A stretch of 64,000 nt of DNA from Betaproteobacteria bacterium (GCA_020061585.1 JAGUXX010000201.1:4575-68574), one strand, 5' to 3'; shown: positions 25,671-53,271, counted from the stretch's first letter. The notes: generated by a model not told the origin, from the letters alone. Made by a program: numbers and translations.

Positions 25671-25704
25671 GGCGCCATCATCTCCTCAATGGACAATATT
25701 TCTA

Positions 25705-32837: not shown

Positions 32838-32878
32838 GGTTGCCGAATCATGTTCGTGTGGTCATGCCGAGCGACGAT

Positions 32879-33289
32879 TCACGCGCGATTCACTGTGGCG
32901 GTGAACTCGCCGTAATCTCTGATGTAGTCACTTTCGTCATAATGGCGGGAGGCCAGAACCATGCAGACGGAACCTGACGAGAAATTATCCAGTTCGCGCC
33001 AAGTCATGGGGCATAGATACAGGCCATTGTACGAACGGTTGAGGTGGACGCGCTTTCGCTCCAGACCGTCGTCTATCACCACATCGAAGCTCCCCGACAT
33101 GGCAATGATGAATTGATGCAATTGCTTGTGTGCGTGACCGCCACGTTCCGCACCGCCCGGTACATCGTACAGATAGTAGACACGCTCGATCTGAAAGGGC
33201 ACATGCCGCCCCCCCTCGATGAACGTCAGATTGCCGCGGTGATCCGCGATCTTGGGCAAGCCCAACAGCCTGCAATCGGCCAAAGCCAT
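32879..33289 (-). CDS. fdtA: FdtA/WxcM-type NDP-4-keto-6-deoxyhexose 3,4-ketoisomerase (cupin)
   Basis: LPKIADHRGNLTFIEGGRHVPFQIERVYYLYDVPGGAERGGHAHKQLHQFIIAMSGSFDVVIDDG, the hallmark FdtA sequence pattern, 136 aa. Confidence 0.85.
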   Translation of the reverse strand: MALADCRLLGLPKIADHRGNLTFIEGGRHVPFQIERVYYLYDVPGGAERGGHAHKQLHQFIIAMSGSFDVVIDDGLERKRVHLNRSYNGLYLCPMTWRELDNFSSGSVCMVLASRHYDESDYIRDYGEFTATVNRA

Positions 33290-33299
33290 ATTTTCTCCT

Positions 33300-35260: not shown

Positions 35261-35262
35261 TT

Positions 35263-36561: not shown

Positions 36562-36603
36562 CCTGAAACCTGATCAGAAACCGGTGCCCGAACAACCCGC
36601 CGC

Positions 36604-37437: not shown

Positions 37438-38510
37438 TTCCCGACTCCTGTCGGCATGTCCGAAAAAGATGAAGCATGCGCCGCCGAGCGGCGTATGGCA
37501 TCGGGGAGCGCGGTCCATACGTCCAGGCCAAGTTCTTCCCGGGCTCGTCCAATGTCCGGTACATAGCGGTCTCTCGGCGTATTGCCGATACTGAGATTTG
37601 TCTGCCCGAGCACCCGTACTGTTTTATCCGGGCAGACGATGTCGCGAACCAGATTTGCGAGATCGCCGATGCTGATCGCCCGATCCGAGCCGATGTTGTA
37701 GATCCGGCCATTGCCCCCGGCGAGCAGCGCTGCCAGCAGCCAGACGACCAAGTCGGCCAGATAGAGATAGGAGCGCTCCGGACGGCCGTCGCCGTTGACC
37801 GTGATCGCTTCGGCGCCCAATGCCTGGCCGATGAAATTGCCTATCGCATAGTGAATGTCGAGCGGCAGAAACGGCCCGACGAAGGAAAAGCAACGTGCAA
37901 TGCAGCACGCCCAGTCATGCCGATGGGCGTAATAGGCGCAAAGGAATTCGGCGCTGCGCTTGGCTTGGCCAAGCGCCGAATTGACGTCCGTGGTATCCGG
38001 CGCACCGGAATAGGTTTCCGGAATGCGATCGATCCGCGTCGGCTGCACGCCATACGCGACGCCGGAACTCAGAAACAGAAAGCGCTCAACCCCGCATTGG
38101 GTGCAAAAATCCAGAATCCTGCGAGTCCCGTCAACCAAGGTGTCGAACTTGGACAGTGGCGTTGCGCCCTGGTAAGTTTCGCGCGCCGAAGTGGTGGCGG
38201 CATGAATGACGTGGCTGAATTCGCCTTTCGGAAAGACGAAGTCGCGCACGTCACCGACATGGAAACGCATCGCCGGATCGGCGACCAGATGCGGCGCCGC
38301 CCTGGCCAGTGCCGACGGATCGCGGCTCAGCACGGTGACTCGAATGCCGGCGTCGAGTTGCATATTGGCATGCCGGATCGACTCCAGCAGCCAACGTCCG
38401 AACCACCCGGTACCGCCTGTGAGGAATATCGAACGACCGCGCAGGCCATCCCAAATCTCGGGCTTGCGACCGAGAATGGCGTCGAGATCGGCGCGAATGG
38501 CGTCGTGCAT
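37434..38510 (-). CDS. Extended SDR (NAD-dependent epimerase/dehydratase family)
   Basis: Rossmann motif IFLTGGTGWFGRWLL and LSSGVAYG. The expected YxxxK position reads LGQAK. Confidence 0.8.
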   Translation of the reverse strand: MHDAIRADLDAILGRKPEIWDGLRGRSIFLTGGTGWFGRWLLESIRHANMQLDAGIRVTVLSRDPSALARAAPHLVADPAMRFHVGDVRDFVFPKGEFSHVIHAATTSARETYQGATPLSKFDTLVDGTRRILDFCTQCGVERFLFLSSGVAYGVQPTRIDRIPETYSGAPDTTDVNSALGQAKRSAEFLCAYYAHRHDWACCIARCFSFVGPFLPLDIHYAIGNFIGQALGAEAITVNGDGRPERSYLYLADLVVWLLAALLAGGNGRIYNIGSDRAISIGDLANLVRDIVCPDKTVRVLGQTNLSIGNTPRDRYVPDIGRAREELGLDVWTALPDAIRRSAAHASSFSDMPTGVGK

Positions 38511-38527
38511 GCGTGCGCTGTTACGGG

Positions 38528-40420
38528 TCAGCCGAGGACCACAAGACCGCTGGTCCAGTATTCGGCCGGCTGGCCGAAATGGACCCGGTGATTGAAGGTG
38601 AGATCGGGCCCGTAAGCCTCGAAGTGCAGCCCGGCGTCGACCCGGTCACCGGCCAGAGCCGCCAGCCACAGCAACGGCGGATAGCCGTTCTCGCGCAGCA
38701 GCAGGCCGGGGTTGCCGACCAGGGCGGCGCAGGTATCGTAAGCGCCGGCGAGCAGAAAATCATCGGGCAAGCTGGCGATCCGCGCCAACGCGGCCGGGAT
38801 GGAATATTCGTTCAGGCAGGGGAAGTAGTAGCCGACCACGGCATCCCGCGCCATGGCCTCGATCAAGCGCTCATGGCGCGAGCCTGGCGCCACCGAGAGC
38901 GTGCCGGCCAGACTGGCCTTGACGTGGTTGACGAAATCGTAATCCGGCAGACTGGCTTCGAAGGCGCCGCGCACGGCGCCGAGGTAGTGGGTTTCCAGCG
39001 CCTCGCCGATATCCTGGTGGTCCGCCTTCGGCAGCAGGAAGGGCACACCGACGCCGCGCACGATGTCTGCGGTTTCCGGACGCCCGCCAAGGCGCGCCAG
39101 AATGGCCTGGGCGCGTCGGGCGAACTCGTCCGCCGATGGCAAGCCTGCGCGACCCAGGTGGGTCTCGGCGCGGGCATGTATGCCGGCATAGTCGATCTCG
39201 GGCTGCTCGACCACGAACCAGCGTCGAGTGATCGCCGGCACCGCGCCGCTCCCGGTTTCCGGAACGCAGCGACCATATTCGTCAAACAGCGCCGCGGGTG
39301 CCCTGGCCGGGGCGGCCAGGTCGGCGACCACGCTGTCGGCCTCGGAAAAGCCCTTGCCCCAGGGCACCGGCAGAAACGATACGCCGTGCGTTTTTTCGGC
39401 ATGGATGGCGATGAACTTGGGATCCTCGCCGATCAGACAATCCGGGCGGTACGGACCCAGCCAGGGATTGCGCATGCCCCGCGCCAGGACTTCCTTGAGC
39501 GGGGTCTCGCGCAGATTGCCGATGGAGAAGTCGATGTAGGGACAGGGCGTGACCTCCATGGTCGAAGTCACGGTGATGATGCCCTTGACCGTGATGCAGC
39601 CCTTGAACGAGCCGTAGGACGGCGTCATGTGGGTGAAGACGCTGAACTCCTTCTCCAGCGCGCGCACGGCGTCGGCGTCGGCCTTGTCGATCACCAGTTC
39701 CGGGTGGTCCGAACAGGCGCCGGACGGCTTGGCATAGGAAACGTAGAGGCCGATGCCGCGGTTCTCCACGAACTGGCACAGGTCGCGGAATTCCTGTGTG
39801 CGCGCCCGGCCCTTGACCAAGACCGTGGCCAGGATCAGGTTGAGGCCGGCATCCAGGCTGGCGTCGATGGCGCGCATCACGCGCTTGTAGGAGCCTGGCT
39901 TGTTGCGGAAGGTGTCATGGTCCTGCTCGATGTAACTGTCGAGCGAGAGTTGCACCTTGTCGACGCCGATGGCTTTCAGGTGACGCGCCTGCTCGGCATC
40001 CAGAAACCAGCCGTTGGTGTCGGTAACGATGTAGTGCATATCGGGGTCGATGGCCGCCACGACCGCGTCGAAATCCTTCATCACCAAAGGTTCGCCGCCG
40101 GTGATCACAAAGCGTGCCAGGCCCAGTTCGTCAGCCTCGCGAGACAGGCGACGCACGTCATCCATGTCCATCTTGCGGCGGGTGTCGACCACCTTGAGCA
40201 CCTTGTCCAGGTGGCGGTCCATGTAATACTCGGCCGAGCAGTGGGTACAGTGGAAATTGCACAGGTAGCTCTTTTCCAGGCGGATGATCGGACTGATCTC
40301 GCCCCGCGCCTCCATCTCGGCGATAAGCGCGAGCTTGGCCGCGACGCGCGGCTTGGTCTGCTTCAGGCCGTTGCGCTTGGCCAGTTCCTCGGCGGTCAAC
40401 AACAGTTCGGGTGCGTTCAT
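38528..40420 (-). CDS. Radical SAM enzyme with an uncharacterised C-terminal domain of roughly 270 aa
   Basis: CX3CX2C (YLCNFHCTHCSAE), GGEPLV, and a twitch-like segment VTPCPYIDFSIGNLRETPLKEVL. I could not assign the C-terminal half (from about aa 360). The antisense mirror ORF was rejected. Confidence 0.75.
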   Translation of the reverse strand: MNAPELLLTAEELAKRNGLKQTKPRVAAKLALIAEMEARGEISPIIRLEKSYLCNFHCTHCSAEYYMDRHLDKVLKVVDTRRKMDMDDVRRLSREADELGLARFVITGGEPLVMKDFDAVVAAIDPDMHYIVTDTNGWFLDAEQARHLKAIGVDKVQLSLDSYIEQDHDTFRNKPGSYKRVMRAIDASLDAGLNLILATVLVKGRARTQEFRDLCQFVENRGIGLYVSYAKPSGACSDHPELVIDKADADAVRALEKEFSVFTHMTPSYGSFKGCITVKGIITVTSTMEVTPCPYIDFSIGNLRETPLKEVLARGMRNPWLGPYRPDCLIGEDPKFIAIHAEKTHGVSFLPVPWGKGFSEADSVVADLAAPARAPAALFDEYGRCVPETGSGAVPAITRRWFVVEQPEIDYAGIHARAETHLGRAGLPSADEFARRAQAILARLGGRPETADIVRGVGVPFLLPKADHQDIGEALETHYLGAVRGAFEASLPDYDFVNHVKASLAGTLSVAPGSRHERLIEAMARDAVVGYYFPCLNEYSIPAALARIASLPDDFLLAGAYDTCAALVGNPGLLLRENGYPPLLWLAALAGDRVDAGLHFEAYGPDLTFNHRVHFGQPAEYWTSGLVVLG

Positions 40421-40439
40421 GGGCGTAGCTTCCGGTAAA

Positions 40440-41003
40440 TCAATGGTCTATCGGTCGATCAGGCATCCGCCCATCGATACAGGGGCGGTATATCTCGTGA
40501 ACGGCGATCAGGTCTGGCGGGCAACGGTCGTGCCATTGCCATTGGCCGTTTAACGGCATCCCGCCGGAATACTTGAGCAATTCGCTCGGCTGACTTGACA
40601 GGCGGCAGTTGAACAACAACGAAATGAAATGACCGCGCACATCCCGGTGCGGGGCCATGATCTCGCGCAGTTCCGCGGGCGCCGCATCGTGCTCGACGAT
40701 GCAGCCCAGTTCGTTCCAGGCCACGGCGGCGATCCGCTCGGCGAAAGTCTCCTTGAACCGAACAATACCACCCGGAATGTGCCAACCCGCTCCGTAGAAT
40801 TCGTCCTGGCGCCAAGTCAGCAGCGTTGCGCCGCTGTCGTTGCGGATAAGCAGATCCACATTCACCAGCGGCGTAAGCCGACTGACCAGGAAGAACACCT
40901 CCTGGGGCAGGCCATCGCGGGCCGACCCCAGCGCGGCGTCGAGGCCGGCAACGTGGTCGGCCACCGCCCTGCCCGGCCGTTCACTATCACGAAACCCGCT
41001 CAA
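40440..41003 (-). CDS. Nudix hydrolase (GDP-mannose mannosyl hydrolase-like, degenerate Nudix box)
   Basis: WHIPGGIVRFKETFAERIAAVAWNELG resembles the modified Nudix box of NudD/Gmm-type sugar-nucleotide hydrolases. Confidence 0.65.
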   Translation of the reverse strand: MSGFRDSERPGRAVADHVAGLDAALGSARDGLPQEVFFLVSRLTPLVNVDLLIRNDSGATLLTWRQDEFYGAGWHIPGGIVRFKETFAERIAAVAWNELGCIVEHDAAPAELREIMAPHRDVRGHFISLLFNCRLSSQPSELLKYSGGMPLNGQWQWHDRCPPDLIAVHEIYRPCIDGRMPDRPIDH

Positions 41004-42126
41004 GACCGTGGTCCCTCAGGATAGCGACATGCTCGACTTGTCTGAAGCGGTTGCAAACGATCTTTGCCACTTCATCCGAATAACTCGCCGCCATGACGAT
41101 GACGGCGCCGACCGGGTCTTCCAGCAGGCGCTCCGGCGCGACGATGGGAATATGGCTGGCGGCGGTGTAACGATTCTGCTTGAACGGCGCGGAGTCCACC
41201 ACGTAGCGCACCCGGCCGCCAAGGTCGAGCAGGGCGAGGGTAGCCAGGGCCTGATGCCCGGCGCCCCAGATCGCCACGCCGCCGGAACTGTGGCGTTCGA
41301 GAAAGGTATCCAGCTCATCTTGCAGGCGGCTGCGACGCGACACGAAGGCGGACACGTCACAGGGCGCGCGCTTGCGCACCACGGCGGAGAGGATGTAGTC
41401 GTACCAGACCTCGGTGCATGCGAGCACCTCGAAACCGGCCAGACGCAGGGTGGTTTCCAGCGTTTCGCGCGTGAAATAACTCAGATGATCGGAAATGAAC
41501 TCGGTGAACAGGCCGCGCGCCAGAATCATGTCGAAATTCGGCACCTCGACCAGGCCGATTCCGTCGGCGTCGAGATTGCCGGCGATGCCACGCAGGCCGC
41601 CGACGGGGTCGGGCCAGTGTTCCAGGAAGTTGAGCGCCACGAAGGCATCGAACGGCCCGCCGTCGATCACCGCGGCCGGGTCGTCGACAAAGCCTTGCGT
41701 GGCCGGCAGACCCTGCTCCAGACAATGCCTTACCGCCAGCGCGTCGTGTTCCAGTCCGTGCGCCGCGAGGCCCGCCTCTCGCAGCAGGGCGAGATACTCG
41801 CCCCGACCGCAGCCGATCTCGAGCGTTTTCCTGCCCGACAGGCCGTATCGGCCGGCAAAGTCCGCGAACTGCTGGCGCCGGAAGTCCTTCATCTCGTCGG
41901 AAAAACCGGCCGCCCGAATCACGTCTCGGTAGTACGGCACCGGGCCGTTGCCGGTCTGCACCAAACCGCAGGCCGGACATTGCAGGATGTCCAGGTCCAC
42001 ACCCTGGTCAGTGTCCAGGCCGGCGGCATCGGGCAGATACTGGGCAGCGGCGGGCATGTTTTCCAGGCGGATCAGAGGCACATCAGGCATGACCGCCTGG
42101 CAAAGCCGGCACGTCCGCTTATCCAT
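40987..42126 (-). CDS. NDP-hexose C-methyltransferase (TylCIII/TcaB9-like three-domain architecture)
   Basis: N-terminal Zn-ribbon CRLC...CPACGLVQ, SAM motif TLEIGCGRGEYL, and C-terminal domain VAIWGAGHQALATLALL...VRYVVDSAPFKQNRYTAASHIPIVAPE...AVIVMAASYSDEV. Confidence 0.8.
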   Translation of the reverse strand: MDKRTCRLCQAVMPDVPLIRLENMPAAAQYLPDAAGLDTDQGVDLDILQCPACGLVQTGNGPVPYYRDVIRAAGFSDEMKDFRRQQFADFAGRYGLSGRKTLEIGCGRGEYLALLREAGLAAHGLEHDALAVRHCLEQGLPATQGFVDDPAAVIDGGPFDAFVALNFLEHWPDPVGGLRGIAGNLDADGIGLVEVPNFDMILARGLFTEFISDHLSYFTRETLETTLRLAGFEVLACTEVWYDYILSAVVRKRAPCDVSAFVSRRSRLQDELDTFLERHSSGGVAIWGAGHQALATLALLDLGGRVRYVVDSAPFKQNRYTAASHIPIVAPERLLEDPVGAVIVMAASYSDEVAKIVCNRFRQVEHVAILRDHGLERVS

Positions 42127-43960
42127 CCAAAGAGGCCCTTGCCCGGATGGACTGTTCCGACAAGTCCACGATCATTTCCTGACGCAACACGTCCAGCGGC
42201 AGGAGCGGAGTCATATCCTCCAACGGCATCGACAACATTGAGCCGTCCGGTTGCGGCAGCGCGGCGGCTTTGGGCCAGAGCGTCTCATCGCTGATCAAGC
42301 GCACATCGCAGATCAACGGCCCGGGATGCGCCATGGCTTGACGCAATCCGGCCGCCAAGCCAGCCGCGTCCATGATGCGTATCACCGGCAAGCCGAACGA
42401 CTCGGCCACCTTACCCAGATCGGGGAAATCAAGTCCACCCTCGGCGCCGGTGGCGATGAAACGCCCCTGAAAGTAATTGCGCTGGGTATTGCGGATCGAG
42501 GCATACCCGCCATTGTTCAGGACGAACAAACGAATCGGCAGATTACGGCCCTTGAGGATGGCCAGTTCTTGCAGATTCAGCATCAGGCTGCCGTCACTCT
42601 CCACCGCCACCATGGGTTTGTTGCCGTGGCCGATGCAGGCGCCGATGGCGGCTGGCAGGCCGTAACCCATGGCGCCCAGGCCGGATGTCAGGAACACGCG
42701 CTGGCCGGGCTTGTTGCGAAACACGCTGTAGAAGGCCTCAATGCCGAGACCGGAGCTGCCGGTGGCGATGGGGATATCGGGCGGTAACGCTTCGGACAGC
42801 GCATCGACAAACTGGTAATGACTGATCGGCCCGGCGGCGGAAAATGGCAGGCCATCGTTGACCGGATAACGCGCCTTCCAGTCCTGACAACGCGTCCGCC
42901 AAGCCGAAAAATCCCTGATCGTGATGGATTCGCCCGCCGCCAACAGGGCTGTGATGGCGGTTTTGGCATCGGCAGCCATCGGCTCGTCGATAGACATGCC
43001 GGCTTTTACAAGCTCGTTGGGATCTATGTCTATCACCACCTTGCGGGCCCCGCGACCATAACCGGCTGGGTTATAGGCGGTCACGACGGGGTCAAGACGA
43101 CAGCCGATGACAATCAACAGATCGCAGTTCTGTACGGCGAAGTTGGGCGCGCGCAAGGCCACCACACCCGGACGACCGACACACAATGGATGGTCGTATG
43201 GAATCAGATCTAGTGCGTTCCAGGTGGTCACCACCGGGATTTTCCAGGTTTCATACAACTCGCGAAAAGCCTCGGCGGCACCCGCCAGGCGCACACCGTG
43301 CCCAGCCAGCAGCAGCGGTCGCTCGGCCTGGCTCAGCAGCGCCATGATCCGTTCAATCTGGTCTGGCGCCGGCCTGGTCATGCTGGCCGCATCCGCGACT
43401 GCCGGCCCCAAAAGTGCGGCGGGGTCGATGACCACGGCCTGGATATCGAGCGGCACATCCAACCAAACCGGACCGGGTCGGCCTTCGAGCATCAAGCGTA
43501 AAGCCGTATCGAGATGGCGTTTGACTTGCGCGGGGTCATCCAGCGTAACGGCATACTTCGTGATGCCCCGCACCATGGGCACAATGTCCACCTCCTGCAC
43601 GCCGCCTTGGCGCAACGGCCTGCCGGCCAGGCGATCAGCGCGCTTGACCTGGCCGGAGATCACCAGCATGGGCAGCGAATCGATCCAGGCTCCGGCCACC
43701 GGAGTGATGGCGTTGGTGGCGCCCGGCCCGGTGGTCACCATGACGACACCGAAGCCGGGATTTCCGGGCGCGCCGGTCCGACCATAGGCCTCGGCGGCAA
43801 TGGCGGCGGCCTGTTCATGATGGCAGGGCACCGCGGTCAGTCGCTTTTCGCACGCCAGGGCATCGTTCAGGTGCATGGCGCCGCCGCCCGGCAGCAGGAA
43901 GACATGACGCAACCCGGCGTCGGCCAGGCGGGACATCAGGTAATCGGCAACGCGCATCAC
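42119..43960 (-). CDS. Thiamine-diphosphate enzyme of the acetolactate-synthase large-subunit family (YerE-like candidate)
   Basis: 613 aa. N-terminal Pyr domain (VTTGPGATNA) and ThDP-binding motif GLGAMGYGLPAAIGA...ESDGSLMLNLQELA...NNGGYASI. There is no small regulatory subunit, and it is embedded in CDP-sugar genes. Confidence 0.85.
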   Translation of the reverse strand: MMRVADYLMSRLADAGLRHVFLLPGGGAMHLNDALACEKRLTAVPCHHEQAAAIAAEAYGRTGAPGNPGFGVVMVTTGPGATNAITPVAGAWIDSLPMLVISGQVKRADRLAGRPLRQGGVQEVDIVPMVRGITKYAVTLDDPAQVKRHLDTALRLMLEGRPGPVWLDVPLDIQAVVIDPAALLGPAVADAASMTRPAPDQIERIMALLSQAERPLLLAGHGVRLAGAAEAFRELYETWKIPVVTTWNALDLIPYDHPLCVGRPGVVALRAPNFAVQNCDLLIVIGCRLDPVVTAYNPAGYGRGARKVVIDIDPNELVKAGMSIDEPMAADAKTAITALLAAGESITIRDFSAWRTRCQDWKARYPVNDGLPFSAAGPISHYQFVDALSEALPPDIPIATGSSGLGIEAFYSVFRNKPGQRVFLTSGLGAMGYGLPAAIGACIGHGNKPMVAVESDGSLMLNLQELAILKGRNLPIRLFVLNNGGYASIRNTQRNYFQGRFIATGAEGGLDFPDLGKVAESFGLPVIRIMDAAGLAAGLRQAMAHPGPLICDVRLISDETLWPKAAALPQPDGSMLSMPLEDMTPLLPLDVLRQEMIVDLSEQSIRARASLDG

Positions 43961-45462
43961 ACCATCCAGTAAGTCAGGAGTGTCTTGCGATCCTTGTTCT
44001 GATTGATTCGGTCATCGACATAGAAGGAATCTTTCGGATCGTGGGTGGTGGAAATCTCTTCGATGATCGACCCGGTGGGCGATACGAAGGAATGCCGCAC
44101 GCCGGGTTCCACGGTCTGAACGTCGCCCGCCTTCAACACGCGTGGTTGGCCGTCCAACAGCATGTTCACCTCGCCGCGCAGGACGTGGAAGGTTTCTTCC
44201 TTGATGTGGTGGTATTGCTCGGGGTGCGTCTGGCCCGGCAGACTGACCAGCAGCTTCTTGCAATAGCCCCGGTTGACCACGGTAATCAGAACCAGACCCG
44301 TACGCTCGAACTCGTCGAGTCCGTAATGGTGCGAAATCTCCAGATCGGCGCTGCCTGGAACGATGATGCGGGCTTCCTCCAGCATCGACTTGACGCGCTG
44401 AGCAATCTCCCAGATCTTGGCCCGACGGTCTTCGCGTGTCGTGTTGTCCGGCGCTATCGGCGCATTCGCCTGGATATCGACCGCGGCGGTATAGACAGCA
44501 TATTTTGACCAGTCGTTGGCGGTGTACTGACCTTCCGCCGGCGGAAAGGCGAAATAGGTGTCATCCGGCTTTACAACGGTACCGGCGGCGATTGGACGGC
44601 GCGCAAACACGCCTCGACGCAAAGAGCGCAGGCTGGCCGCTTCGCGAGGGTTGACCGGCGGACGCGCATCCGCGGCGCCACACATGCGCAGTGCGCGCGT
44701 CGCTTCGGTCAGCCAGGCGAACATCTGCTCGGGGCTGACTGAATAGTTGTTCAGCGGATAGGCCGCAGTGGGCAATCCGACGTGCTTCTCGAACAGATTC
44801 GCGCCCTTGGCCACAGCCAGTTTGATGATATCGGTATTGCCCGGGTCTTCATGGCTGGACAAACCAATGCGCACGCCTGGATAGCGTTGCTTCAGGAAAT
44901 CAATCTGGGACAGGTGCATGTCCTGTTCGGAAGTCGGATATTCACCCACGCAATGCAGGATGGCGAATTCCTTGTCACGGTGCATCAGAAAGCTGACCAC
45001 CCGGTCCATGTCCTCGACGCGGGCACCCGCCGTGGAGGCGATGATGGGTTGCTGGCAGCGTACGACACGTTCCAGCAATGGCCAATCGGTGAAGGAACAA
45101 CTGGCGATCTTGATGATGTCCAGCCCCTGATCTTCGATCACGTCCACGGAAGGCTCATCGAAGGGAGTTGCCATGGCCAGAAAGCCGTTGGCTCGCATTT
45201 CGGCGACCAGACGGTCGAAATCGGCACGGCTCAGGCGGGTTTCGGAAAATCGCTTGACGTACTTGATGTCGTCCCGACCTTGCGCATCGGGATGGATAAA
45301 GCTGTCCAGATCGCGATACTGCAACTTGAAAGCGAAGCGAAACTGACCAAACGCGCGGCAAACTTCGCCAAAGCGCTGGATGATGTCAAGGCCGTGCCGC
45401 ACATCCCCCATATGGTTGTTGGCCATTTCAAGGACAACAAGATTTTCCGGGATTAGCTTCAT
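43957..45462 (-). CDS. NeuB-family (sialic-acid-synthase-like) PEP-condensing enzyme with a SAF domain and a C-terminal cupin domain
   Basis: The N-terminus VLEMANNHMGD...IIKIASCSFTDWPLLE is typical of NeuB/SpsE. A SAF-like segment RRPIAAGTVVKPDD follows. The C-terminal cupin segment is GQTHPEQYHHIKEETFHVLRGEVNMLLDGQ...VEPGVRHSF. Confidence 0.75.
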   Translation of the reverse strand: MKLIPENLVVLEMANNHMGDVRHGLDIIQRFGEVCRAFGQFRFAFKLQYRDLDSFIHPDAQGRDDIKYVKRFSETRLSRADFDRLVAEMRANGFLAMATPFDEPSVDVIEDQGLDIIKIASCSFTDWPLLERVVRCQQPIIASTAGARVEDMDRVVSFLMHRDKEFAILHCVGEYPTSEQDMHLSQIDFLKQRYPGVRIGLSSHEDPGNTDIIKLAVAKGANLFEKHVGLPTAAYPLNNYSVSPEQMFAWLTEATRALRMCGAADARPPVNPREAASLRSLRRGVFARRPIAAGTVVKPDDTYFAFPPAEGQYTANDWSKYAVYTAAVDIQANAPIAPDNTTREDRRAKIWEIAQRVKSMLEEARIIVPGSADLEISHHYGLDEFERTGLVLITVVNRGYCKKLLVSLPGQTHPEQYHHIKEETFHVLRGEVNMLLDGQPRVLKAGDVQTVEPGVRHSFVSPTGSIIEEISTTHDPKDSFYVDDRINQNKDRKTLLTYWMV

Positions 45463-45547
45463 GTAGGTTTCTCATTCATGGTCACGTTCCTGCCCATGGT
45501 CTGACAGGGGCTCAATCTATCGAGTTGAATCCGGCCCGAGTTTAGGT

Positions 45548-46234
45548 TCATCCCGCGCTCGCGTCAGCGAAAAAATCCCCCAGGTTCTTGAGATCGTCCG
45601 GCAAGGCAATCTTGTGCCAAGGCAGAGCCAGACCCCAGGCATCCGTATCGCCGCCATAACCCCAGGTCACCGCGACGAAGCTCATGCCATTGGCCTGCGC
45701 GGCCACGCCATCCTCACGGGTATCGCCGATATAGACCGTTCTTTCCGGATCGATCGATTGCTCCTGAAGCAGGCGTTGCAGCATGTCCGCCTTGCTCGCG
45801 TATCCCACCGGAATGCCGTCCTGACTGTAAACCGACTTGAAATAGCGCTCCCAGCCTTGGGCCTGGAGTATTTTACGAGTCGGCAGTAAGCGTTTGTTCG
45901 TTGCCAGATGCAAGCTTTGGCGATTCTCGTACAACTGCGCCAGCACGTCCGATACGCCCGGAAAGGGATGCGTGATCAAAGCCACCTCGGCGTCATAGCG
46001 ATGTTTGAAATCTTTCGCCAGAGCATCGAGCGCGACGACATCGTCAACTCCGGCGATCCTGGCCAGGGTCGCTTTCAACGGGGGACCGATCAGGTGGGGG
46101 CCGATGCTGACCACCGGCGCAAAACCAGCCTCCACCACCACCGCCTCAAGACATGCAAGTATCGCCGGCGCGGAGTCCACCAAGGTGCCGTCCAGGTCAA
46201 ACACCAACGCGTCGCAACGCCCCCCCGCCCTCAA
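45548..46234 (-). CDS. HAD-superfamily phosphatase (phosphoglycolate-phosphatase-like)
   Basis: [10 protein letters not shown] (DxDxT), LATNK, and [12 protein letters not shown]. The start is uncertain. TTG 46234 overlaps the rfbH stop (TTGA), and the track ORF's longer N-terminus overlaps rfbH. Confidence 0.75.
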
Positions 46235-47544
46235 AACCGCACCCCGAGAAATGTCTCGATCTTCTCGGCGACGAAATCGAGCATGGTAGCGCTCAAACCC
46301 GGATAAACGCCCAACCAGAAGGTATTCGCCATAACCGTATCGGTATTGTTCAACGAACCCGCGCAACGATAGGTCTTGTCCCGCATGTATGGTTGTCGGA
46401 GCAAATTTCCGGCGAACAGCAAGCGTGTGCCGATCTTGTATTGATCCAGGTATTTGAGCAGATCAACCCGATCAAAACCGACATCCTGTCTCAATGTAAC
46501 GGGAAACCCGAACCAGGAAGGCTCGGCGTGCTGCGTCGCCCCAGGCAAGATCAGGTGCTCCTGACAAGACGACAGGCGTTCGGACAACCCGTTGAAGTTC
46601 ATCCGGCGCGCGCTGACGAAGCCATCGAGCTTGTCCATCTGCGCCAAGCCGCAAGCCGCCTGCATATCGGTGATCTTCAGGTTGAAGCCCAAATGCGAAT
46701 AGATGTATTTGTGGTCATAACCTTCCGGCAGCTCCCCCAGCTTCCAGCAGAAACGCTGGCCGCAGGTATTGTCACGACCCGGCGCGCACCAGCAATCCCG
46801 CCCCCAGTCGCGAATCGATTCGATGGCGCGAACCAGCGTGTCATCGCTGGTGAACACCGCCCCGCCCTCGCCCATGGTGATGTGATGCGCCGGATAGAAA
46901 CTCAATGTCCCGATGTGCCCGAAGGTGCCGACATGCTGGCCGCGATAGGTCGAACCCAGGGCATCGCAACAATCCTCGATCACCCACAGGTTGTGCTTGC
47001 GCGCCAACGCCATGACGGCATCGAGATCAAACGGATTGCCCAGCGTGTGCGCCAGCATGATGGCGCGGGTACGCGGCGACACGGCGGCTTCAAGTTGCTC
47101 GGCGTCGATGTTGTAGGTGCCCAGGCGGACATCGACAAATACCGGCGTCATGCCATAGAGCAGAATCGGATTGACGGTGGTCGGAAAGCCGGCGGCCACG
47201 CTGATGACCTCATCGCCTGGGCGCAGCGCCCGGTCACCGAGCAGCGGCGAAGTGAGCGCGGCAAATGCAACCAGATTGGCCGACGAGCCGGAATTGACCG
47301 TACGGGCGTGGCGGCAGCCGATGAATTCGGCCAGACGCGTCTCCAGAGCGGCATTGAAACGCCCGGTCGTCAACCAACCATCCAGACTGGCGTCGACCAT
47401 ATTGACGAGTTCCTCCGCGCCGATCACCTTGCCGGACACGGGCACCGCGTCCTGGCCGGGCCGAAACGGCGTCGCATCAGCCTTGTCCAGCGCATATTCG
47501 CGGACCTGATCGAGTATCGCCAAACGTCGTTCTTCGAGGTTCAT
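46231..47544 (-). CDS. rfbH: CDP-6-deoxy-D-xylo-4-hexulose-3-dehydrase (RfbH/DdhC, E1-type)
   Basis: The start is taken at [17 protein letters not shown], which overlaps the rfbG stop (ATGA). It is DegT-fold with RfbH-specific features ([26 protein letters not shown]; [15 protein letters not shown], the Cys-rich Fe-S region). Confidence 0.88.
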
Positions 47545-48605
47545 GCTGAAAGCGCCATATAGTCTTCGATCTGGGTTTGGGTATAAGCGCGCATATCCGC
47601 GCCGGTCAGCCAGGCACGCTGCCAGTCGACGGTTTTTTCTAGCGCGGCCTGGATCCCGTATCGCGGTCTCCAGCCTAGTAGCGCGCGCGCCTGGCTGCTG
47701 TCCAGGGTCAGCAGACGCGCCTCGTGCGGCTGCTCGCCGGCCTCGGCCCGCCAGGTCGCGGTTTCGCCCCACGCTGACGCCAGTCGATCGAGCAATCCAG
47801 CGACCGACAACATCTCGGCGGCATCCGGCCCGAAGTTCCAGGCGCCGGCATGTTCACCGCGCAGCAGCCCCTCGGCGAGTCGCAGATACCCCGCCAGGGG
47901 TTCCAGAACATGTTGCCAGGGCCGCACGGCGGCGGGATTCCTGACGTTCAGCGCGCGCCCCGCCTGCCAGGCGCGCAAGGCATCCGGCACCAACCGGTCC
48001 GCCGCCCAATCGCCGCCGCCGATGACATTGCCGGCGCGCGCGGTGGCCACCTGGACTCGCCCGGCGAGGAAGGAATCGCGCCACGCAGAGGTAATGATCT
48101 CGGCGCAGGCCTTGCTGGCCGAGTACGGATCGCGGCCGCCCAGCGCGTCGGATTCCCGGTAGGGCCAGAGCCATTCCTGATTGCGGTAACACTTGTCGCT
48201 GGTGATCACCAGCAGCGCGCGAACCGAGTCGCAACCCCGCACGGCTTCCAGCAGGTTCATCGTGCCGACGACATTGCTGGTCAGAGTGCCGACCGGATCG
48301 CGATATCCTTCGCGCACCAGAGCCTGCGCCGCAAGATGCAACACCACTTCGGGTCGGGTTTGTTTTATGAACGAGGTCAAACAGGCCATATCGCGAAGAT
48401 CGCCGAGTTGCTGTTCGACCCCCTCGGCGACCCTGGCCGCGTCGAAAAGCGATGGCATGCTGGGCGGCGGCAAGGCAAAGCCGAACACCTTGGCGCCCAG
48501 TCGCTCCAGCCAGAGCGATAGCCAGCCGCCCTTGAAGCCGGTATGCCCGGTGACCAGTACCCGGCGCCCCCGCCAGATGTCCGGACTCACGCCCAGCAAC
48601 GCCAT
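47541..48605 (-). CDS. rfbG: CDP-glucose 4,6-dehydratase
   Basis: [28 protein letters not shown] (YxxxK), 354 aa, positioned between rfbF and rfbH. Confidence 0.9.
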
Positions 48606-49357
48606 GGCGCCTTGTTCTTCTGCCAGAGATCTTCCAACAGAACCTTGTCGCGCAGGGTATCCATGGCCTGCCAGAAACCGGTATGCGTAAAGGCGTTGAG
48701 CTCACCTTGCGCCGCCAGGGCGCGCATCGGCTCTTGTTCCCAGATGATGCCATCGTGCTCGATGTAGTCGAAGACCCCCGGTTCGAGGACAAAAAAGCCG
48801 CCGTTGATCCAGCCGCCGTCACCCAGCGGTTTTTCCTGGAATGAGAGTACTTTGCTGGCGCCGATTTCCAGTGCGCCATAACGCCCCGGCGGCTGCACGG
48901 CGGTCACCGTGGCCAGGCGTTGGTTCCGGCGATGGTGTTCAATCAGCGCTTGCAGATCGACATCGGAGACGCCATCACCGTAGGTGAAACAGAAGGTTTC
49001 GTCGCCCACATAATCTCGGATGCGCTTAAGACGCCCTCCCGTCATGGTGTCGTCACCCGTATCGACCAGGGTGACCTGCCAAGGCTCCGCATGCTGATGG
49101 TGGACATGCATGCGGTTGTTGCGCATGTCGAAGGTCACGTCTGACATATGCAGGAAGTAGTTGGCGTAATACTCTTTGATGACATAGCCTTTGTAGCCAA
49201 GGCAGACAACGAAATCATGTATTCCCTGGGCGGAGAAGATTTTCATGATATGCCAGATAATCGGCCGACCACCGATTTCGATCATCGGCTTGGGCTTGAG
49301 ATGAGACTCCTCGCTGATGCGTGAACCCATCCCCCCGGCAAGAATGACGCATTTCAT
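48587..49357 (-). CDS. rfbF: Glucose-1-phosphate cytidylyltransferase
   Basis: The start is taken at [39 protein letters not shown]. The hallmark RfbF/DdhA sequence runs throughout, 256 aa. Confidence 0.92.
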
Positions 49358-49493
49358 AGAACTGCCCTGTGATCGAGGTATGGAATCTTGGCTAGCAGTC
49401 CACCTGGTGCTACGTTCGACATGCGTCCGCACGGCACAGGTCTGCGCACACGAAGATATTCGACGACATTGGCGCCGTCGGAGTAGCCGACTT

Positions 49494-49865
49494 TCAGTTG
49501 CCGCTCAACCCGGAAGAAACATTCCGGTTGATGGAAATCAGGACATCGAGTTTTTCAGGCGAGGGGAAAGCCATGAGGTCATAGGTTCGCCTGTCGATGA
49601 ACAAGGACAGCGACAACAGATTTTTCTTGATCTCGACCGGCAAGGGATTCTCCGGGTCGGATATTTCAGTCTGGAAAAACGTCCAGACCCGTTGATTGAA
49701 GCGCAGCACGTCGTCAAGACGCTGTTCGAGTTCTGGCGAATTCCAGTTTGCCCTGACGTCGGCCAACAGGTTAGCGGATCTGGTCAACACTGACGCCTCC
49801 AACTCGCGACCGGCCAAGGTTGATTTCTCTACGGCCTGATAGGCATCAAGCGGGTTGACGGACAT
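49494..49865 (-). CDS. flaF: Flagellar biosynthesis regulator FlaF
   Basis: 123 aa, [27 protein letters not shown]...[38 protein letters not shown], matching alphaproteobacterial FlaF. Confidence 0.85.
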
Positions 49866-50244
49866 GATTGATAAGCTCCTGTTCGTATTGCATCAATTTC
49901 CGGGCAATCTTCAGCGCCTGATAGTATTTGCCGCAGGCGAGCTCGGCATTCAACTCGGCAAGCATTGACCGAGTGCTTGGCGCCGCATGCAGCACTTCGG
50001 TCATCAGCCCGGCATAACTGTTCTGGTAGTTCATCAGGTTCATCGGGTCCATGTACATAAGCTGGACGCACAGATAAATCCGTCCGCAGACCGTAGTCAC
50101 CTCGGCCTCGGTGAGCACATCCTTTTCGCGCAGCACGGGCACATCGTTGAGTATGCTGAATTCGACGTACCCCTCAACATTTTGCACCACCGCCCCCCCG
50201 ATAAAGACTTTCTCGTGAGGCTTCAGCGAAATTTTGAGGGGCAT
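49846..50244 (-). CDS. flbT: Flagellin translational repressor FlbT
   Basis: MPLKISLKPHEKVFIGGAVVQN...PVLREKDVLTE...YYQALKIARKLMQYE closely parallels Caulobacter FlbT. The ATG at 50244 is preferred over the TTG at 50250. Confidence 0.85.
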   Translation of the reverse strand: MPLKISLKPHEKVFIGGAVVQNVEGYVEFSILNDVPVLREKDVLTEAEVTTVCGRIYLCVQLMYMDPMNLMNYQNSYAGLMTEVLHAAPSTRSMLAELNAELACGKYYQALKIARKLMQYEQELINHVRQPA

Positions 50245-50246
50245 GG

Positions 50247-50948
50247 TCAAACTCCAACTCGCGACAAGCCGGATTGTCCCATCACCAGCGCCCGCGAGGA
50301 ATCGGCAAGACGCGCGGAAACTTCATTGATCAACTGCCCAACAGCCTCTTCCGTCGCCGGTAAAAGTGGCAAATCTGCATTGATTTTCTCCGGCAAAGCC
50401 TGCGCCCGCTTGTGCAGCGCAACGACGCCGGCATCCAGTTTCTCTTGCAGTTGCGTCAGTGCCGAGCCGAAAGCCAGAACGTCATCATCCGTGGCGGACA
50501 AGGCATCCAGCGACGGCAAAGCGGCTTCGCGCGGATAGAAAACCGCCTCGCTATCGCCTTTGACCGGCGGCACAACCATGGCCTCCAACTGCTGACGCAA
50601 GCCATTGATGCCATTGATATATTGCATACGCCCATCGTTGCCGGGCGGAAACGGCGGATAGTTTTTGATCAAGGCCACCGCCTCGCCAATGTCCTTGACG
50701 ATTTCTTTGACATCATCAAGCGCCTGGTCGGCTGCGCGGATGGATCGAGCATATTGCATCGCCTCATCCTTCTCCGACGCCAGGGCGACAAACTCGGTAA
50801 ATTTGGCCGTCGACTCAACCAAGTCCTTGTCAGCGCCGACAACTGATTGCGCACTGCTTTTGACAGCACCCGCTTGAGGCTCACTGACGCGGCCAAGCCC
50901 TTGGCTATATGCCAGATTGATGCTCGAGATTTCTTGCATCGTAGTCAT
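50247..50948 (-). CDS. Hypothetical protein (233 aa) between flagellin and flbT
   Basis: A clean ORF with codon usage consistent with its neighbours. It is acidic, looks helical, and has no TM segment or signal peptide. It carries the distinctive motif KNYPPFPPGNDGR. No family recognised. Confidence 0.5.
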   Translation of the reverse strand: MTTMQEISSINLAYSQGLGRVSEPQAGAVKSSAQSVVGADKDLVESTAKFTEFVALASEKDEAMQYARSIRAADQALDDVKEIVKDIGEAVALIKNYPPFPPGNDGRMQYINGINGLRQQLEAMVVPPVKGDSEAVFYPREAALPSLDALSATDDDVLAFGSALTQLQEKLDAGVVALHKRAQALPEKINADLPLLPATEEAVGQLINEVSARLADSSRALVMGQSGLSRVGV

Positions 50949-50964
50949 GACTACCCCCTATGGC

Positions 50965-50996
50965 AAAAACCCCGAGGCGAGAATCTCGCCCCGGGG
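50965..50996 (-). terminator. Strong rho-independent terminator after the flagellin gene
   Basis: The minus-strand RNA CCCCGGGGCGAG-AUU-CUCGCCUCGGGG forms a 12-bp stem with one G-U pair, followed by UUUUUG. It starts 28 nt after the flagellin stop and ends 17 nt before the next ATG. Confidence 0.75.
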
Positions 50997-51024
50997 CACA
51001 CCTTCAGACCTCAAGGACGAGCGT

Positions 51025-51843
51025 TTAGAACAACCGCAGCACGCCTTGGGCCGCCTGGGAGGCAAGTGACAACGACGTGGTACCCAATTGCTGGCGCGTT
51101 TGCAGCATCAGCATATTGGCGCCTTCCTCATTGATATCCGCGAGTGTCAACTTGTCGGCGCCTTCCTTCAAAGTATTCACCATATCGGTGGTGAAATCGA
51201 TACGGGTCTGGATGATCGCCAGGTTGGAAGCCAAGGTGGCCGAGTTTTCGCGCAAGGTGGTCAACGCGGTATTCAGCGTATCTTCAAGCGTATCCAGAGT
51301 TGTGCCAGTATCGCCCGCACCAAGCGTGCCAATGGAAAGATCTGTCGTGGTTGCGCCACTGCCAGAGACGGTCAGCGAATTGGTTCCATCCTCATTGAAG
51401 CTGACTTTCAGCGTAGTGCCATCCTGAAGGAAATTGACACCCTTGTAGCTTGCATCCGCCACCAAGGTATCCATTTGCGCCACAAGCGTATCAAACTGAG
51501 CCACTTGTTCGGCAGTGGCACCGGTCCCGGAAGTCTCGGCGCGCGCCTGGGTAATCACGCCTCGCAGATTCTCGATGAGGCTGGTAATCGCCGTCACACC
51601 CTTGTCAGCGGCCTTGATGGTCTGAACCGCTTCGTTCATCGCATCCTTGCGACCTTCCAGTTGGCCGGCACGGTCGGTATGACCTTTGGCGGCGAAAAAG
51701 TTGGCGGGGTTGTCGAGTGCCGAATTGATTTTCTTGCCGGTACTGAGGCGCTCTTGCGTCCGGTTCATGCTATTGGTGGTTTCTTGCAGGGAAACCAGCG
51801 TGGAACGCATTGATGCGGTCAGGGAGATGTCGTTCATTGCCAT
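51025..51843 (-). CDS. Flagellin (short, alphaproteobacterial LafA/Fla-like type)
   Basis: 272 aa. The N-terminus is LSTGKKINSALDNPANFFAAKG and the C-terminus is LMLQTRQQLGTTSLSLASQAAQGVLRLF. There is no large variable D2/D3 insert. Confidence 0.9.
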   Translation of the reverse strand: MAMNDISLTASMRSTLVSLQETTNSMNRTQERLSTGKKINSALDNPANFFAAKGHTDRAGQLEGRKDAMNEAVQTIKAADKGVTAITSLIENLRGVITQARAETSGTGATAEQVAQFDTLVAQMDTLVADASYKGVNFLQDGTTLKVSFNEDGTNSLTVSGSGATTTDLSIGTLGAGDTGTTLDTLEDTLNTALTTLRENSATLASNLAIIQTRIDFTTDMVNTLKEGADKLTLADINEEGANMLMLQTRQQLGTTSLSLASQAAQGVLRLF

Positions 51844-51924
51844 GATAAAACTCCTGTTCTAGGTTGATGTCCGGAAGGGATTCTCCCCTCCGTTGCCGCA
51901 ACTTGAATTGCCGCGGTTGAACCA

Positions 51925-51951
51925 CTTACGGCAGCATGAAAAAAAACTTTA
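51925..51951 (-). promoter_or_regulatory. Sigma-28 (FliA)-type promoter upstream of the flagellin gene
   Basis: The minus strand reads TAAAGTTT-N11-GCCGTAAG, against the consensus TAAAGTTT-N11-GCCGATAA. The -10 element ends about 80 nt upstream of the flagellin ATG. Confidence 0.7.
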
Positions 51952-52074
51952 GGGTTTTTTCCATAAAAATTTTCGGGGCTGATCGCATGTCCTCGCCAAA
52001 GGTCGCTCTGCCTTGACCTACAAGTGTTGAACAGACGCTATATACTGAAAGAGAACCTGCATGAGGTCCATGGC

Positions 52075-53271
52075 ATGAGCATATTCGATGTAACCAATGA
52101 CAGCGTCTTCGCGGCCACCTTGTACCAGAGCGGTCAGATCGAGGATATCGCCAAACGCGTCCTCAACAAGGGCTTGCAGTCATTTGTCGACAACAACTAC
52201 GCGGATGCGGTGACCGCCTTCAAACAATCGGCGGCGCTCGCGCCGAATACGTCGACTGGCATCAATGCGCTTGACTATCTGGCCCGCGCCTATCTCGGCC
52301 AGGGCGATACCGAGGCCGCCATCAAAGCCTACAAGCAGGTCCTTCGCGTTGCCCCGACGCGCGATGACTTGCACTCCGCTCTAGGCAACCTGTATTACTC
52401 CGAGGAACGTTTTGCGGAGGCCACCGCGTCCTACGAACTCGCGGTCAGGGCGAACCCAAGCGCGGTCAATCGATACTCGCTGGGCCAGGGCTATCTGGCC
52501 GAAGGGCGATTCAGCGACGCGGAAGCCCAGTTCAATCTAGTGCGGCGGTTTTCACCAAGCGAACCGCATGGCGATTTTGGCTTGGGTCAAGTCTACGCAA
52601 AGCAAGGTCGGTACGACGAGGCCTTGAATGCCCTCCAGCGCGCGACCAGCATTCAGGCAGATTACTGGAACGCCTACGCGGAAATGGGCTACGTGCTTGC
52701 CGACCAGGGCGAAATTGAAAAGGCCGAGTCTATGGTCGATTTCCTTTCTACCCGTGACGAGACCCTTTCGAGCACCCTGGATGCCTACGTCTATGACAAA
52801 TCCCCGCCGCAAATGACCAGCACCTCCAGTGGCGGTTTTGCCAACATGTTCCTCGACATACTCGGCCCAAAAACCAGTGTCTCGATACTGGGCGAAAATC
52901 TGGCCAATGCTGGCGGCCAGCAAACGCTGTCCATCGTCTTCCAGTTCAGCAAAGCCATGGACCCGGATTCGATCGAGAACGTCATGAACTGGAGCATTCA
53001 GCGTGAGCCGTCGACCCGGACCAGCGCTGGCTACAATTTCGGCAGCCCAGTACCGTCTACCGAGGTTGCATTACCCAACACCCCCCTGGCCGTGTACTAC
53101 GACAGCACTTACATGACGGCTACCGTTCTGTTCAAGGTTCAGCAGAACGACACGGCGGATGGCACCATTGACCCGTCCCACATTCAATTCACCTTCAAAG
53201 GCACAGATGCTGTGGGGCAGTCCATGGATCCGAATGCTGATCAGTACAGCGGGTTTTCCGGCTTTGCCTGA
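52075..53271 (+). CDS. TPR-repeat protein with a C-terminal Ig-like (SbsA-type) domain
   Basis: The start is taken at MSIFDV (ATG 52075; the track starts at an upstream GTG). It has multiple TPR units (AVTAFKQSAALAPN, AIKAYKQVLRVAPT, ATASYELAVRANPS, AEAQFNLVRRFSPS, ALNALQRATSIQAD). The C-terminal beta-rich region is LSIVFQFSKAMDPDSIENVMNWSI. It is divergent from the flagellin gene. Confidence 0.75.
   Translation: MSIFDVTNDSVFAATLYQSGQIEDIAKRVLNKGLQSFVDNNYADAVTAFKQSAALAPNTSTGINALDYLARAYLGQGDTEAAIKAYKQVLRVAPTRDDLHSALGNLYYSEERFAEATASYELAVRANPSAVNRYSLGQGYLAEGRFSDAEAQFNLVRRFSPSEPHGDFGLGQVYAKQGRYDEALNALQRATSIQADYWNAYAEMGYVLADQGEIEKAESMVDFLSTRDETLSSTLDAYVYDKSPPQMTSTSSGGFANMFLDILGPKTSVSILGENLANAGGQQTLSIVFQFSKAMDPDSIENVMNWSIQREPSTRTSAGYNFGSPVPSTEVALPNTPLAVYYDSTYMTATVLFKVQQNDTADGTIDPSHIQFTFKGTDAVGQSMDPNADQYSGFSGFA

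Follow-up and report, generated by a model that had tools for sequence, protein, structure and literature searches.

A Probable Native Late Flagellin Operon of a Non-alphaproteobacterial FlbT/FlaF Lineage and Its Conserved Leader RNA in a Thiobacillus-like Betaproteobacterium

The stretch of DNA examined here, termed the window, comprises 64,000 nucleotides from a Betaproteobacteria bacterium (GCA_020061585.1 JAGUXX010000201.1:4575-68574). Between positions 49,494 and 51,951, its minus strand carries a sigma-28-type promoter, a structured leader, a flagellin gene and, downstream of the latter, genes for a conserved uncharacterized protein (ORF233), FlbT and FlaF. Taken together, the evidence presented below makes it likely that these genes form a late flagellin operon native to a Thiobacillus-like betaproteobacterium and that the operon belongs to a non-alphaproteobacterial FlbT/FlaF lineage with the fixed order flagellin-ORF233-flbT-flaF.

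The flagellin gene (51843..51025) encodes a protein of 272 amino acids (aa) with a Ser/Thr-rich middle and no D2/D3 insert. Both the N- and the C-terminal helical domains of the flagellin family were matched in this short protein (Flagellin_N, PF00669, 63.4 bits against a cut-off of 26.6; Flagellin_C, PF00700, 25.9 bits against 23), and the motif NSALDNPANFF is present in its translation. The product is 94% identical to the flagellin of locus L093, 88% to that of L090, 59-66% to those of L003-L005, and 46-47% to those of L029 and L030. ORF233 (50948..50247; 233 aa) lies between the flagellin gene and flbT. The flbT gene (50244..49846; alternative start at 50250) was identified by a match to PF07378 (E = 1e-39; 135.8 bits, cut-off 27) that covers profile positions 1-125 of 125, and the homologues of its product are 132 aa in length. 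The flaF gene (49865..49494; 123 aa) likewise matches PF07309 (E = 1.5e-31; 109.1 bits, cut-off 23.6) over positions 3-113 of 113. The original prediction had placed a short flagellin with the SALDNPANFF motif, FlbT and FlaF in this region, and the Pfam matches bear out each assignment; ORF233, a divergent gene at 52072..53271 and a sugar island at 49432..20424 had escaped it. The three distal genes are tightly coupled: only 2 nt separate the ORF233 stop codon from the flbT ATG, and flbT shares 20 nt with flaF. Upstream of flbT, the flagellin gene is 0.8 kb away. Every sizeable open reading frame of the window was scanned, and no hook, rod, ring, basal-body, export, motor or chemotaxis gene was found, in agreement with what had been noted beforehand.

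The distribution of this gene set was assessed in 80 loci obtained from a scan of one genome per species (GTDB representatives). A flagellin gene was present upstream in 76/80 loci, an ORF233 homologue lay between it and flbT in 56/80, and flaF followed flbT in 76/80; the linkage of flbT, flaF and flagellin seen in the window thus recurs in 76 of the 80. Approximately half of the loci were betaproteobacterial (Hydrogenophilales, Thiobacillaceae/Thiobacillus, Methylophilaceae/Methylobacillus, Rhodocyclaceae, Gallionellaceae, Tepidiphilus and Hydrogenophilus), with FlbT proteins 44-71% identical to that of the window (most 50-71%, the best 71%). The remainder came from Geobacter/Desulfuromonadales, Desulfobacterales, Syntrophales, Nitrospirota and a few other groups, with FlbT identities of 43-50%. 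FlbT homologues at 50-92% identity carried the names Hydrogenophilaceae, Thiobacillaceae, Parasulfuritortus cantonensis and Betaproteobacteria. FlbT and FlaF together with a short flagellin are therefore the norm in the organism's own clade, made up of the betaproteobacterial groups listed above, a finding that the original prediction had itself named as evidence against it. Literature searches on FlbT in Thiobacillus, Geobacter or betaproteobacteria returned nothing relevant.

The scan patterns were derived from a betaproteobacterial alignment, and the lack of alphaproteobacteria from the list of 80 consequently proves nothing. Alphaproteobacterial FlbT was instead sought by tblastn in a plasmid and chromid collection, and the proteins recovered (from Azospirillum, Erythrobacter, Sinorhizobium, Methylobacterium, Phyllobacterium, Rhodovastum and others) were 30-36% identical to FlbT of the window. 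In a neighbor-joining tree of FlbT, which was built without bootstrap and is indicative only, the window protein groups with two metagenomic relatives inside one betaproteobacterial subclade; a second betaproteobacterial subclade is adjacent, followed by the delta/Nitrospirota sequences, and all nine alphaproteobacterial sequences fall outside. The gene order in the alphaproteobacterial loci (L081-L088) is also different: flaF is followed by flbT and then by flaG/DUF1217 or flgD, with flgE/K/L, fliI and flhA nearby, and no ORF233 homologue was found among their annotated genes. The window shows neither of the two marks of an alphaproteobacterial flaF-flbT module, namely this order within a structural cluster and grouping with alphaproteobacterial FlbT, and the label "alphaproteobacterial-type" originally given to the module does not fit it. 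The G+C content at third codon positions (GC3) of the four module genes is 0.63-0.70, near the bottom of the range spanned by the neighboring genes.

The chromosomal position of the module is also shared with relatives. The right flank (dnaE to RNase; 53369-63994) is 73-88% identical at the protein level to that of L029 and L030, which are a Burkholderiales metagenome-assembled genome and an uncultured Thiobacillus, and in both the module abuts the same genes. It is by its flanks, 83-88% identical to uncultured Thiobacillus/Burkholderiales metagenome-assembled genomes, that the organism can be placed. The left flank (glnD, metG) also occurs in L002, L004 and L007, just after flaF, and L093 repeats the whole window arrangement at 92-97% identity. 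In three further relatives, the module lies between housekeeping and glycosylation genes (Maf, NeuB, DegT, GT2, TPR), and the 10 kb to each side of it are free of flagellar structural genes. Isolation of the module is thus the rule among the relatives examined. The suggestion of a horizontally acquired secondary module or of a second, alpha-type system is left unsupported. Viewed against that suggestion, the locus is ordinary and would be the normal late flagellin operon of its clade.

The same comparison revealed a step in identity. Between the conserved flanks, the module of the window is much diverged from that of L029 and L030, with identities of 46-47% for flagellin, 28-32% for ORF233, 52% for FlbT and 54-57% for FlaF; the module of these two relatives belongs to the other betaproteobacterial FlbT subclade and is not accompanied by a TPR gene. 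Such a step suggests that the module has been replaced as a cassette among betaproteobacteria. It may be, with a likelihood slightly short of even, that the flagellin module and the glycosylation island form a hypervariable cassette that is exchanged among betaproteobacteria by recombination in the conserved flanks, and that the present copy was acquired within the clade, which is compatible with a native operon. Besides the contrast between flanks (73-88%) and module (28-57%), such exchange is favored by L090, in which the block is 73-91% identical but adjoins sdhCAB, by the differing island content of the relatives, and by the lower G+C content within the island (0.49-0.53). Rapid evolution of surface-exposed flagellins and of the proteins that partner them may, however, be explanation enough, although FlbT and FlaF would then have to have diverged with them, which is less expected but possible, and the comparison rests on few flank-sharing genomes. 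If exchange has occurred, the drop in identity would mark the locus as a possible cassette for variation of the flagellar surface.

Upstream of the flagellin gene, a sigma-28 (FliA)-type promoter, TAAAGTTT-N11-GCCGTAAG, was recognized at 51951..51925 on the minus strand by its sequence and conservation. Its -35 element (TAAAGTTT, 51951..51944) is separated by an 11-nt spacer from the -10 element (GCCGTAAG, 51932..51925), and the predicted transcription start falls near 51918. Only one exact occurrence of TAAAGTTT-N11-GCCGWWA exists in the window; with up to 2 mismatches allowed, 3 matches were observed against 0.10 expected by chance. When orthologous leaders were searched with the relaxed pattern T[AC]AAG[TA]-N13-15-[CT]CG[ATC][ATC]A, it was found in 34/43 beta-type loci, where its distance to the flagellin ATG is invariably 102-111 nt, and in 18/28 loci of other lineages at 82-195 nt (most at 116-195 nt), compared with 0.4% of shuffled leaders. 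The -10 variants encountered among the orthologous loci include GCCGTAAT, GCCGAAAA, CCCGATAT and GTCGAAAA. Phylogenetic footprinting thus supports a sigma-28-type promoter, and dependence on FliA may be inferred from it.

The window promoter shares with FliA class III flagellin promoters (consensus TAAAGTTT-N11-GCCGATAA) the -35 element, the 11-nt spacing and the position upstream of a flagellin gene. It differs from them in the -10 element, GCCGTAAG in place of GCCGATAA, the two having GCCG and one A in common (5/8 positions). The near-consensus FliA site of the original prediction is accordingly upheld, but the term "enteric-type" applied to it is a misnomer, since TAAA-N15-GCCGATAA is the general FliA/SigD consensus. 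A contrast had also been drawn with Caulobacter, which has no FliA and uses RpoN/FlbD for its flagellins (PMC3930126). This contrast is real, but it separates Caulobacter from the whole lineage described here rather than this locus from its relatives.

Other candidate transcription signals within the module fared less well. A sigma-28-like site (TGAAGTTT-N11-GCCGATT) is present at 50325..50300 on the minus strand, in the 3' end of ORF233 and 55-80 nt before flbT; as an flbT promoter it was rejected, given that it was not found in any of the 80 loci and is degenerate in L090 and L093, and it is probably due to chance. A scan for sigma-70-type sites returned one weak match, overlapping the ORF233 start, which is fewer than expected. 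Directly 3' of the flagellin gene, a GC-rich hairpin followed by UUUUU (50996..50965, minus strand; -24.3 kcal/mol) resembles an intrinsic terminator or attenuator. In a strict test for a hairpin plus T-run, only the window and L093 scored directly after the flagellin stop codon, and 8/48 loci passed at any position. A terminator at this place was therefore rejected as a general feature, being unconserved beyond the window and L093.

The flagellin leader contains a structured element that is conserved across the loci. In the 5' untranslated region (UTR) of the window, a hairpin, CGGAGGGG-AGAAU-CCCUUCCG, with an 8-bp stem occupies 51892..51872 on the minus strand and presents AGAA in its loop at 51884..51881. 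It is followed by a conserved box, CCUAGAACAGGAG (51863..51851, minus strand), in which a second AGAA stands directly before the Shine-Dalgarno sequence GGAG, 7 nt before the ATG. The general form of the element is a hairpin with AGAA in the loop (plus 0-3 nt), followed by CC(U)AGAA-N(0-2)-GGAG; in aligned leaders, the AGAA of the hairpin loop lies 35-47 nt before the flagellin ATG. An AGAA loop closed by a stem of 5 bp or more was present in 67/78 leaders, compared with 5% of shuffles, and at least 27 different inner stems were seen.

Covariation was assessed in a seed alignment (MAFFT) of 25 sequences, which were picked for having the hairpin, a bias that should be seen against the presence of the hairpin in 67 of the 78 leaders. 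Pairing was retained in 87.4% of the alignment cells compared with 54.8% in shuffles, double-sided changes numbered 66 compared with 22.5, and the covariation score was 0.889 compared with 0.24 for shuffles and at most 0.26 for slid controls. The AGAA of the box (columns 34-37) is invariant in the seed. When both strands of 1.5 Mb were searched with a covariance model built from the seed, approximately one strong match per locus was obtained, and each stopped at the flagellin ATG; the window gave a single match, 51841-51893 (minus strand; 52.7 bits). Across 80 distinct model matches, 84.6% of cells were paired compared with 50.2%, with a covariation score of 0.75 compared with 0.19, although this alignment was fitted to the model. 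The 93-nt leader of the window also folds with a z-score of -3.6. The combination of a conserved loop sequence with a covarying stem points to sequence-specific recognition of the element.

Approximately 70 leaders of flbT-linked flagellin genes contain the element; they come from Betaproteobacteria, Desulfuromonadales, Desulfobacterales, Syntrophales and Nitrospirota. Where these loci hold a second flagellin copy, that copy is without it. When the 4227 covariance models of Rfam were applied at the gathering threshold, two tRNAs were matched and nothing else, and at E values up to 10 on 49300-52100 no match fell in the leader. A literature search on a defined fljK stem-loop motif yielded nothing relevant. 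The combination of leader hairpin and CCUAGAA-GGAG box therefore appears to be a previously undescribed conserved element.

Hairpins of the same type were observed in two further settings. AGAA-loop hairpins (for example, GGGGGGAAGAAUUCCCCCC) precede ORF233-family genes in four loci (L047, 9470-9520; L049, 2543-2590; L078, 750-797; L069, 9195-9268). The genes concerned lie just upstream of flbT and encode proteins of 155-232 aa, and the short family members behind these hairpins carry an FPPFFPI motif. This arrangement suggests the same post-transcriptional control of that gene in some lineages. Separately, the leaders of Azospirillum lateral flagellins located next to flaF-flbT (L081, approximately 5216-5240; L084) contain an AGAA-loop hairpin 36 nt before the ATG. 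These take the form GGCGUC-AGAAA-GGCGCC or AGCGUC-AGAAA-GGCGCU, a compensatory change between the two species.

The protein encoded between flagellin and flbT belongs to an uncharacterized and apparently new family. It shares the core VKNYPPFPPG..R..Y(I/L)N...GLR.Q(L/I)EA...PP with its homologues, all of which are named "hypothetical", and 515 representative clusters were recovered at E ≤ 1e-3. ORF233 gave no significant Pfam match and no NCBIfam or Protein Data Bank (PDB) sequence match. Its structure model is of low confidence (predicted local distance difference test (pLDDT) score, 60.8), with a disordered N terminus and four long helices; flagellins and hook-associated proteins made up almost all of the best Foldseek matches, none of which had an E value below 0.07. 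Comparison by hhalign aligned residues 52-126 with the flagellin ND1 region (E = 0.0031, probability 10%). These comparisons, which depend in part on the modeled fold, offer a hint, and no more, that ORF233 may be flagellin-derived. By analogy, it could fill the co-repressor role of the Caulobacter flagellin paralog FljJ. Approximately 500 uncharacterized clusters are now provided with a clear flagellar context.

The model of FlbT itself is of greater confidence (pLDDT, 88.9) and comprises five short strands along with four helices. The idea that it might be CsrA-like was considered and set aside: no PDB sequence match was obtained by profile, no Foldseek match had an E value below 0.8, and hhalign against CsrA gave E = 0.11 with a probability of 0.5% over 15 columns, such that a likeness to CsrA is not demonstrable. 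The only reminiscence of CsrA is the pattern of five short strands in the structure model.

The locus can be compared with two characterized systems. In the published model for Caulobacter crescentus, FlaF acts as a secretion chaperone, and FlbT with a flagellin paralog acts as a translational co-repressor (PMC7591256). The Caulobacter FlaF/FlbT/FljJ system (Anderson & Gober 2000; Ardissone et al. 2020; summarized in PMC7591256 and PMC3930126) involves the same two families (PF07378, PF07309) and a target flagellin gene with a structured 5' UTR, and the logic expected here would be the same, with an export chaperone and a repressor that senses unexported flagellin. Several differences are evident: the promoter is sigma-28-type rather than RpoN/FlbD-dependent, the order is ORF233-flbT-flaF rather than flaF followed by flbT, a single flagellin gene replaces six paralogs, FlbT of the window is 30-36% identical to the sampled alphaproteobacterial proteins, and the module stands outside structural clusters. 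FlbT/FlaF control, which the FlbT papers retrieved treat mainly in alphaproteobacteria, would thus exist in a distinct and widespread non-alphaproteobacterial lineage that is tied to sigma-28 and not to RpoN, has another gene order and includes one extra conserved gene. The second comparison is with the CsrA-FliW-flagellin (Hag/FlaA) system of Bacillus and Campylobacter (PMC4894983). As is seen or predicted in the window, a bipartite RNA target formed by a hairpin loop and the ribosome-binding site occurs together with a small regulator gene pair linked to flagellin and a sigma-28/SigD-dependent flagellin promoter. However, the core is AGAA in the window and GGA in that system, FlbT has no significant similarity to CsrA, and FlaF is unrelated to FliW by family assignment.

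FlbT has been reported to bind the flagellin 5' UTR, its RNA motif being listed as unresolved (PMC4347634), and for this reason the leader element is the obvious candidate for an FlbT operator. A covarying, cross-phylum short element exactly where FlbT should act would constitute a directly testable operator. The following scheme may then be envisaged. After completion of the hook-basal body, FliA-RNA polymerase would transcribe the flagellin gene, and the leader of approximately 75 nt would offer two AGAA sites, one in the hairpin loop and one flanking the ribosome-binding site. FlbT would bind these sites, probably with unexported flagellin or flagellin-like ORF233 as co-repressor, and would thereby block translation or destabilize the flagellin mRNA. 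FlaF would chaperone flagellin to the export gate, and export would remove the co-repressor and lift repression. In this manner, the amount of flagellin made would follow the capacity for export, as the Caulobacter FlaF/FlbT/FljJ model has it and, by analogy, as in CsrA-FliW-Hag. In its strongest form, the proposal is that FlbT is a sequence-specific RNA-binding repressor with a bipartite AGAA operator and that ORF233 is a flagellin-derived, export-competent co-repressor, the counterpart of Caulobacter FljJ; this joint proposal is advanced tentatively and could well prove wrong. Under the operator part of it, a covarying hairpin would present one AGAA in its loop and the other AGAA would abut the Shine-Dalgarno sequence, a CsrA-like solution with a different specificity, common to Betaproteobacteria, Desulfuromonadota/Desulfobacterota and Nitrospirota and, in a variant form, to some Alphaproteobacteria.

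A number of points weigh against a native operon controlled in this way. The link between FlbT and the element has a sequence basis, and the loci were chosen for flbT, so that their co-occurrence arises partly by construction; the alphaproteobacterial loci gave no match to the covariance model. FlbT has been reported as an activator in Brucella, which makes the sign of regulation uncertain. The terminator-like hairpin after the flagellin gene, which bears on how ORF233-flbT-flaF is transcribed, is unconserved. In addition, the FlbT tree has only indicative value, and the evidence on this genome covers the 64-kb window, with any fliA gene and other flagellar genes lying outside it.

The element may also have a different function. 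It is possible, if doubtful, that it serves not as an FlbT operator but as a CsrA site, that it protects the 5' end from RNases, or that it enhances the translation of a very strongly expressed gene by means of an extended Shine-Dalgarno sequence. The common 3' end of 16S rRNA is CCUCCUUUCU, to which AGAAAGGAG is complementary, and leader hairpins often stabilize mRNAs. In five loci (L031, L044, L050, L065 and L067), the loop or the ribosome-binding site has AGGA in place of AGAA, and GGA is the core recognized by CsrA. Against a CsrA site, most loci by far have AGAA in the loop, and AGGA is seldom seen; against an extended Shine-Dalgarno sequence, the gap between AGAA and GGAG varies from 0 to 2 nt (A, C, U, UU), so that pairing with 16S rRNA is interrupted. 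The retention of the loop sequence in a covarying stem, which points to sequence-specific recognition, the second flagellin copies that are without the element in the same loci, and the occurrence of the same hairpin type ahead of the ORF233-family genes beside flbT all argue for the candidate FlbT operator over these other functions.

Import of the module from an alphaproteobacterium, or membership of the flagellin in a second, alpha-type flagellar system encoded elsewhere, is very improbable: the FlbT papers retrieved deal mainly with alphaproteobacteria, the flagellin is short like those of Caulobacter, and flagellar structural genes are lacking from the 64 kb that the data cover, but FlbT identity is 50-92% for betaproteobacteria, 43-50% for the delta/Nitrospirota group and 30-36% for alphaproteobacteria, the tree leaves all alphaproteobacterial sequences outside, the alphaproteobacterial order is flaF-flbT inside structural clusters with no annotated ORF233 homologue instead of ORF233-flbT-flaF, the module and its sigma-28 promoter recur in dozens of betaproteobacterial genomes, in part at the same chromosomal position, and the GC3 of the four genes falls within the range of their neighbors, if near its lower limit; a recent alphaproteobacterial origin is already contradicted.

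The module is bordered directly downstream of flaF by a sugar-biosynthesis and glycosyltransferase island of 29 kb and 23 genes (49432..20424, minus strand). Its genes encode an NTP-transferase (nucleotidyltransferase), 4,6-dehydratases, two DegT aminotransferases, a HAD protein, a fused NeuB+cupin protein (NeuB, 131.6 bits), a thiamine pyrophosphate (TPP) enzyme, C-methyltransferases, a NUDIX protein, three radical SAM proteins, an ATP-grasp protein, FdtA, a sulfotransferase and several GT2 glycosyltransferases; parts of the island have a G+C content of 0.49-0.53. The last gene of the island encodes a 1243-aa double-GT2 protein, homologues of which adjoin the module in 23 loci, mostly downstream of flaF. 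On the other side, divergent from the flagellin gene, a tetratricopeptide repeat (TPR) protein of 398 aa is encoded from the ATG at 52072 (52072..53271, plus strand; matches to TPR families). In 16 loci a homologue adjoins the module, and gene calls of 394-398 aa are found beside it in L090, L093, L095 and L097. This protein of approximately 395 aa, whose C-terminal third is non-TPR, changes side between lineages: it is encoded divergently upstream in the window and downstream of flaF in Methylophilaceae and others, standing just after flaF in L006, L008, L010, L095 and L097.

Judged by its gene content, the island is probably a flagellin glycosylation island. As in the islands of Campylobacter, Pseudomonas and Aeromonas and in the flm genes of Caulobacter, a NeuB-family synthase of the nonulosonic-acid type, aminotransferases, dehydratases, methyltransferases and glycosyltransferases are found by a flagellin gene. 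Caulobacter also resembles the window in having a flagellin glycosylation system nearby with a TPR-containing partner, although the glycosyltransferase candidates are GT2 proteins in the window and an FlmG TPR-GT-B fusion in Caulobacter. The most likely role of the island and the TPR protein would be glycosylation of the flagellin in its Ser/Thr-rich middle. Compared with known flagellin glycosylation islands, the present one is unusually large (29 kb), and no Maf gene is present in the window, whereas Maf proteins occupy the corresponding place in relatives. It also has CDP-hexose-type entry enzymes, three radical SAM proteins, a TPP enzyme and a sulfotransferase. Given this enzyme set, the predicted glycan is probably unusual.

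Further out, the window carries housekeeping genes. One flank contains genes for an integrase, MerR and HU/IHF proteins, pheST, L20, IF3, thrS, metG, a metallo-β-lactamase (MBL) hydrolase, PP2C-like and OmpA-like proteins, map and glnD, and the other contains genes for a beta-CASP RNase, TgpA, RluB, ScpB/ScpA, a helix-turn-helix (HTH)/TumE pair and DnaE. The flanks originally described, with the RNase/tgpA/rluB/scpAB/dnaE genes on one side and glnD/map on the other, are present as such, but the immediate downstream neighbor of the module is the 29-kb island. Between scpA and dnaE, a small pair of genes for a TumE-family toxin (PF20126) and an HVO_A0114/MarR-like HTH protein (60234-60898, minus strand) probably forms a toxin-antitoxin module. 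The left end of the window holds a tyrosine recombinase/integrase gene (622-1704, plus strand) beside a tRNA gene (1770-1843, minus strand), and the pair may mark the border of an integrated element.

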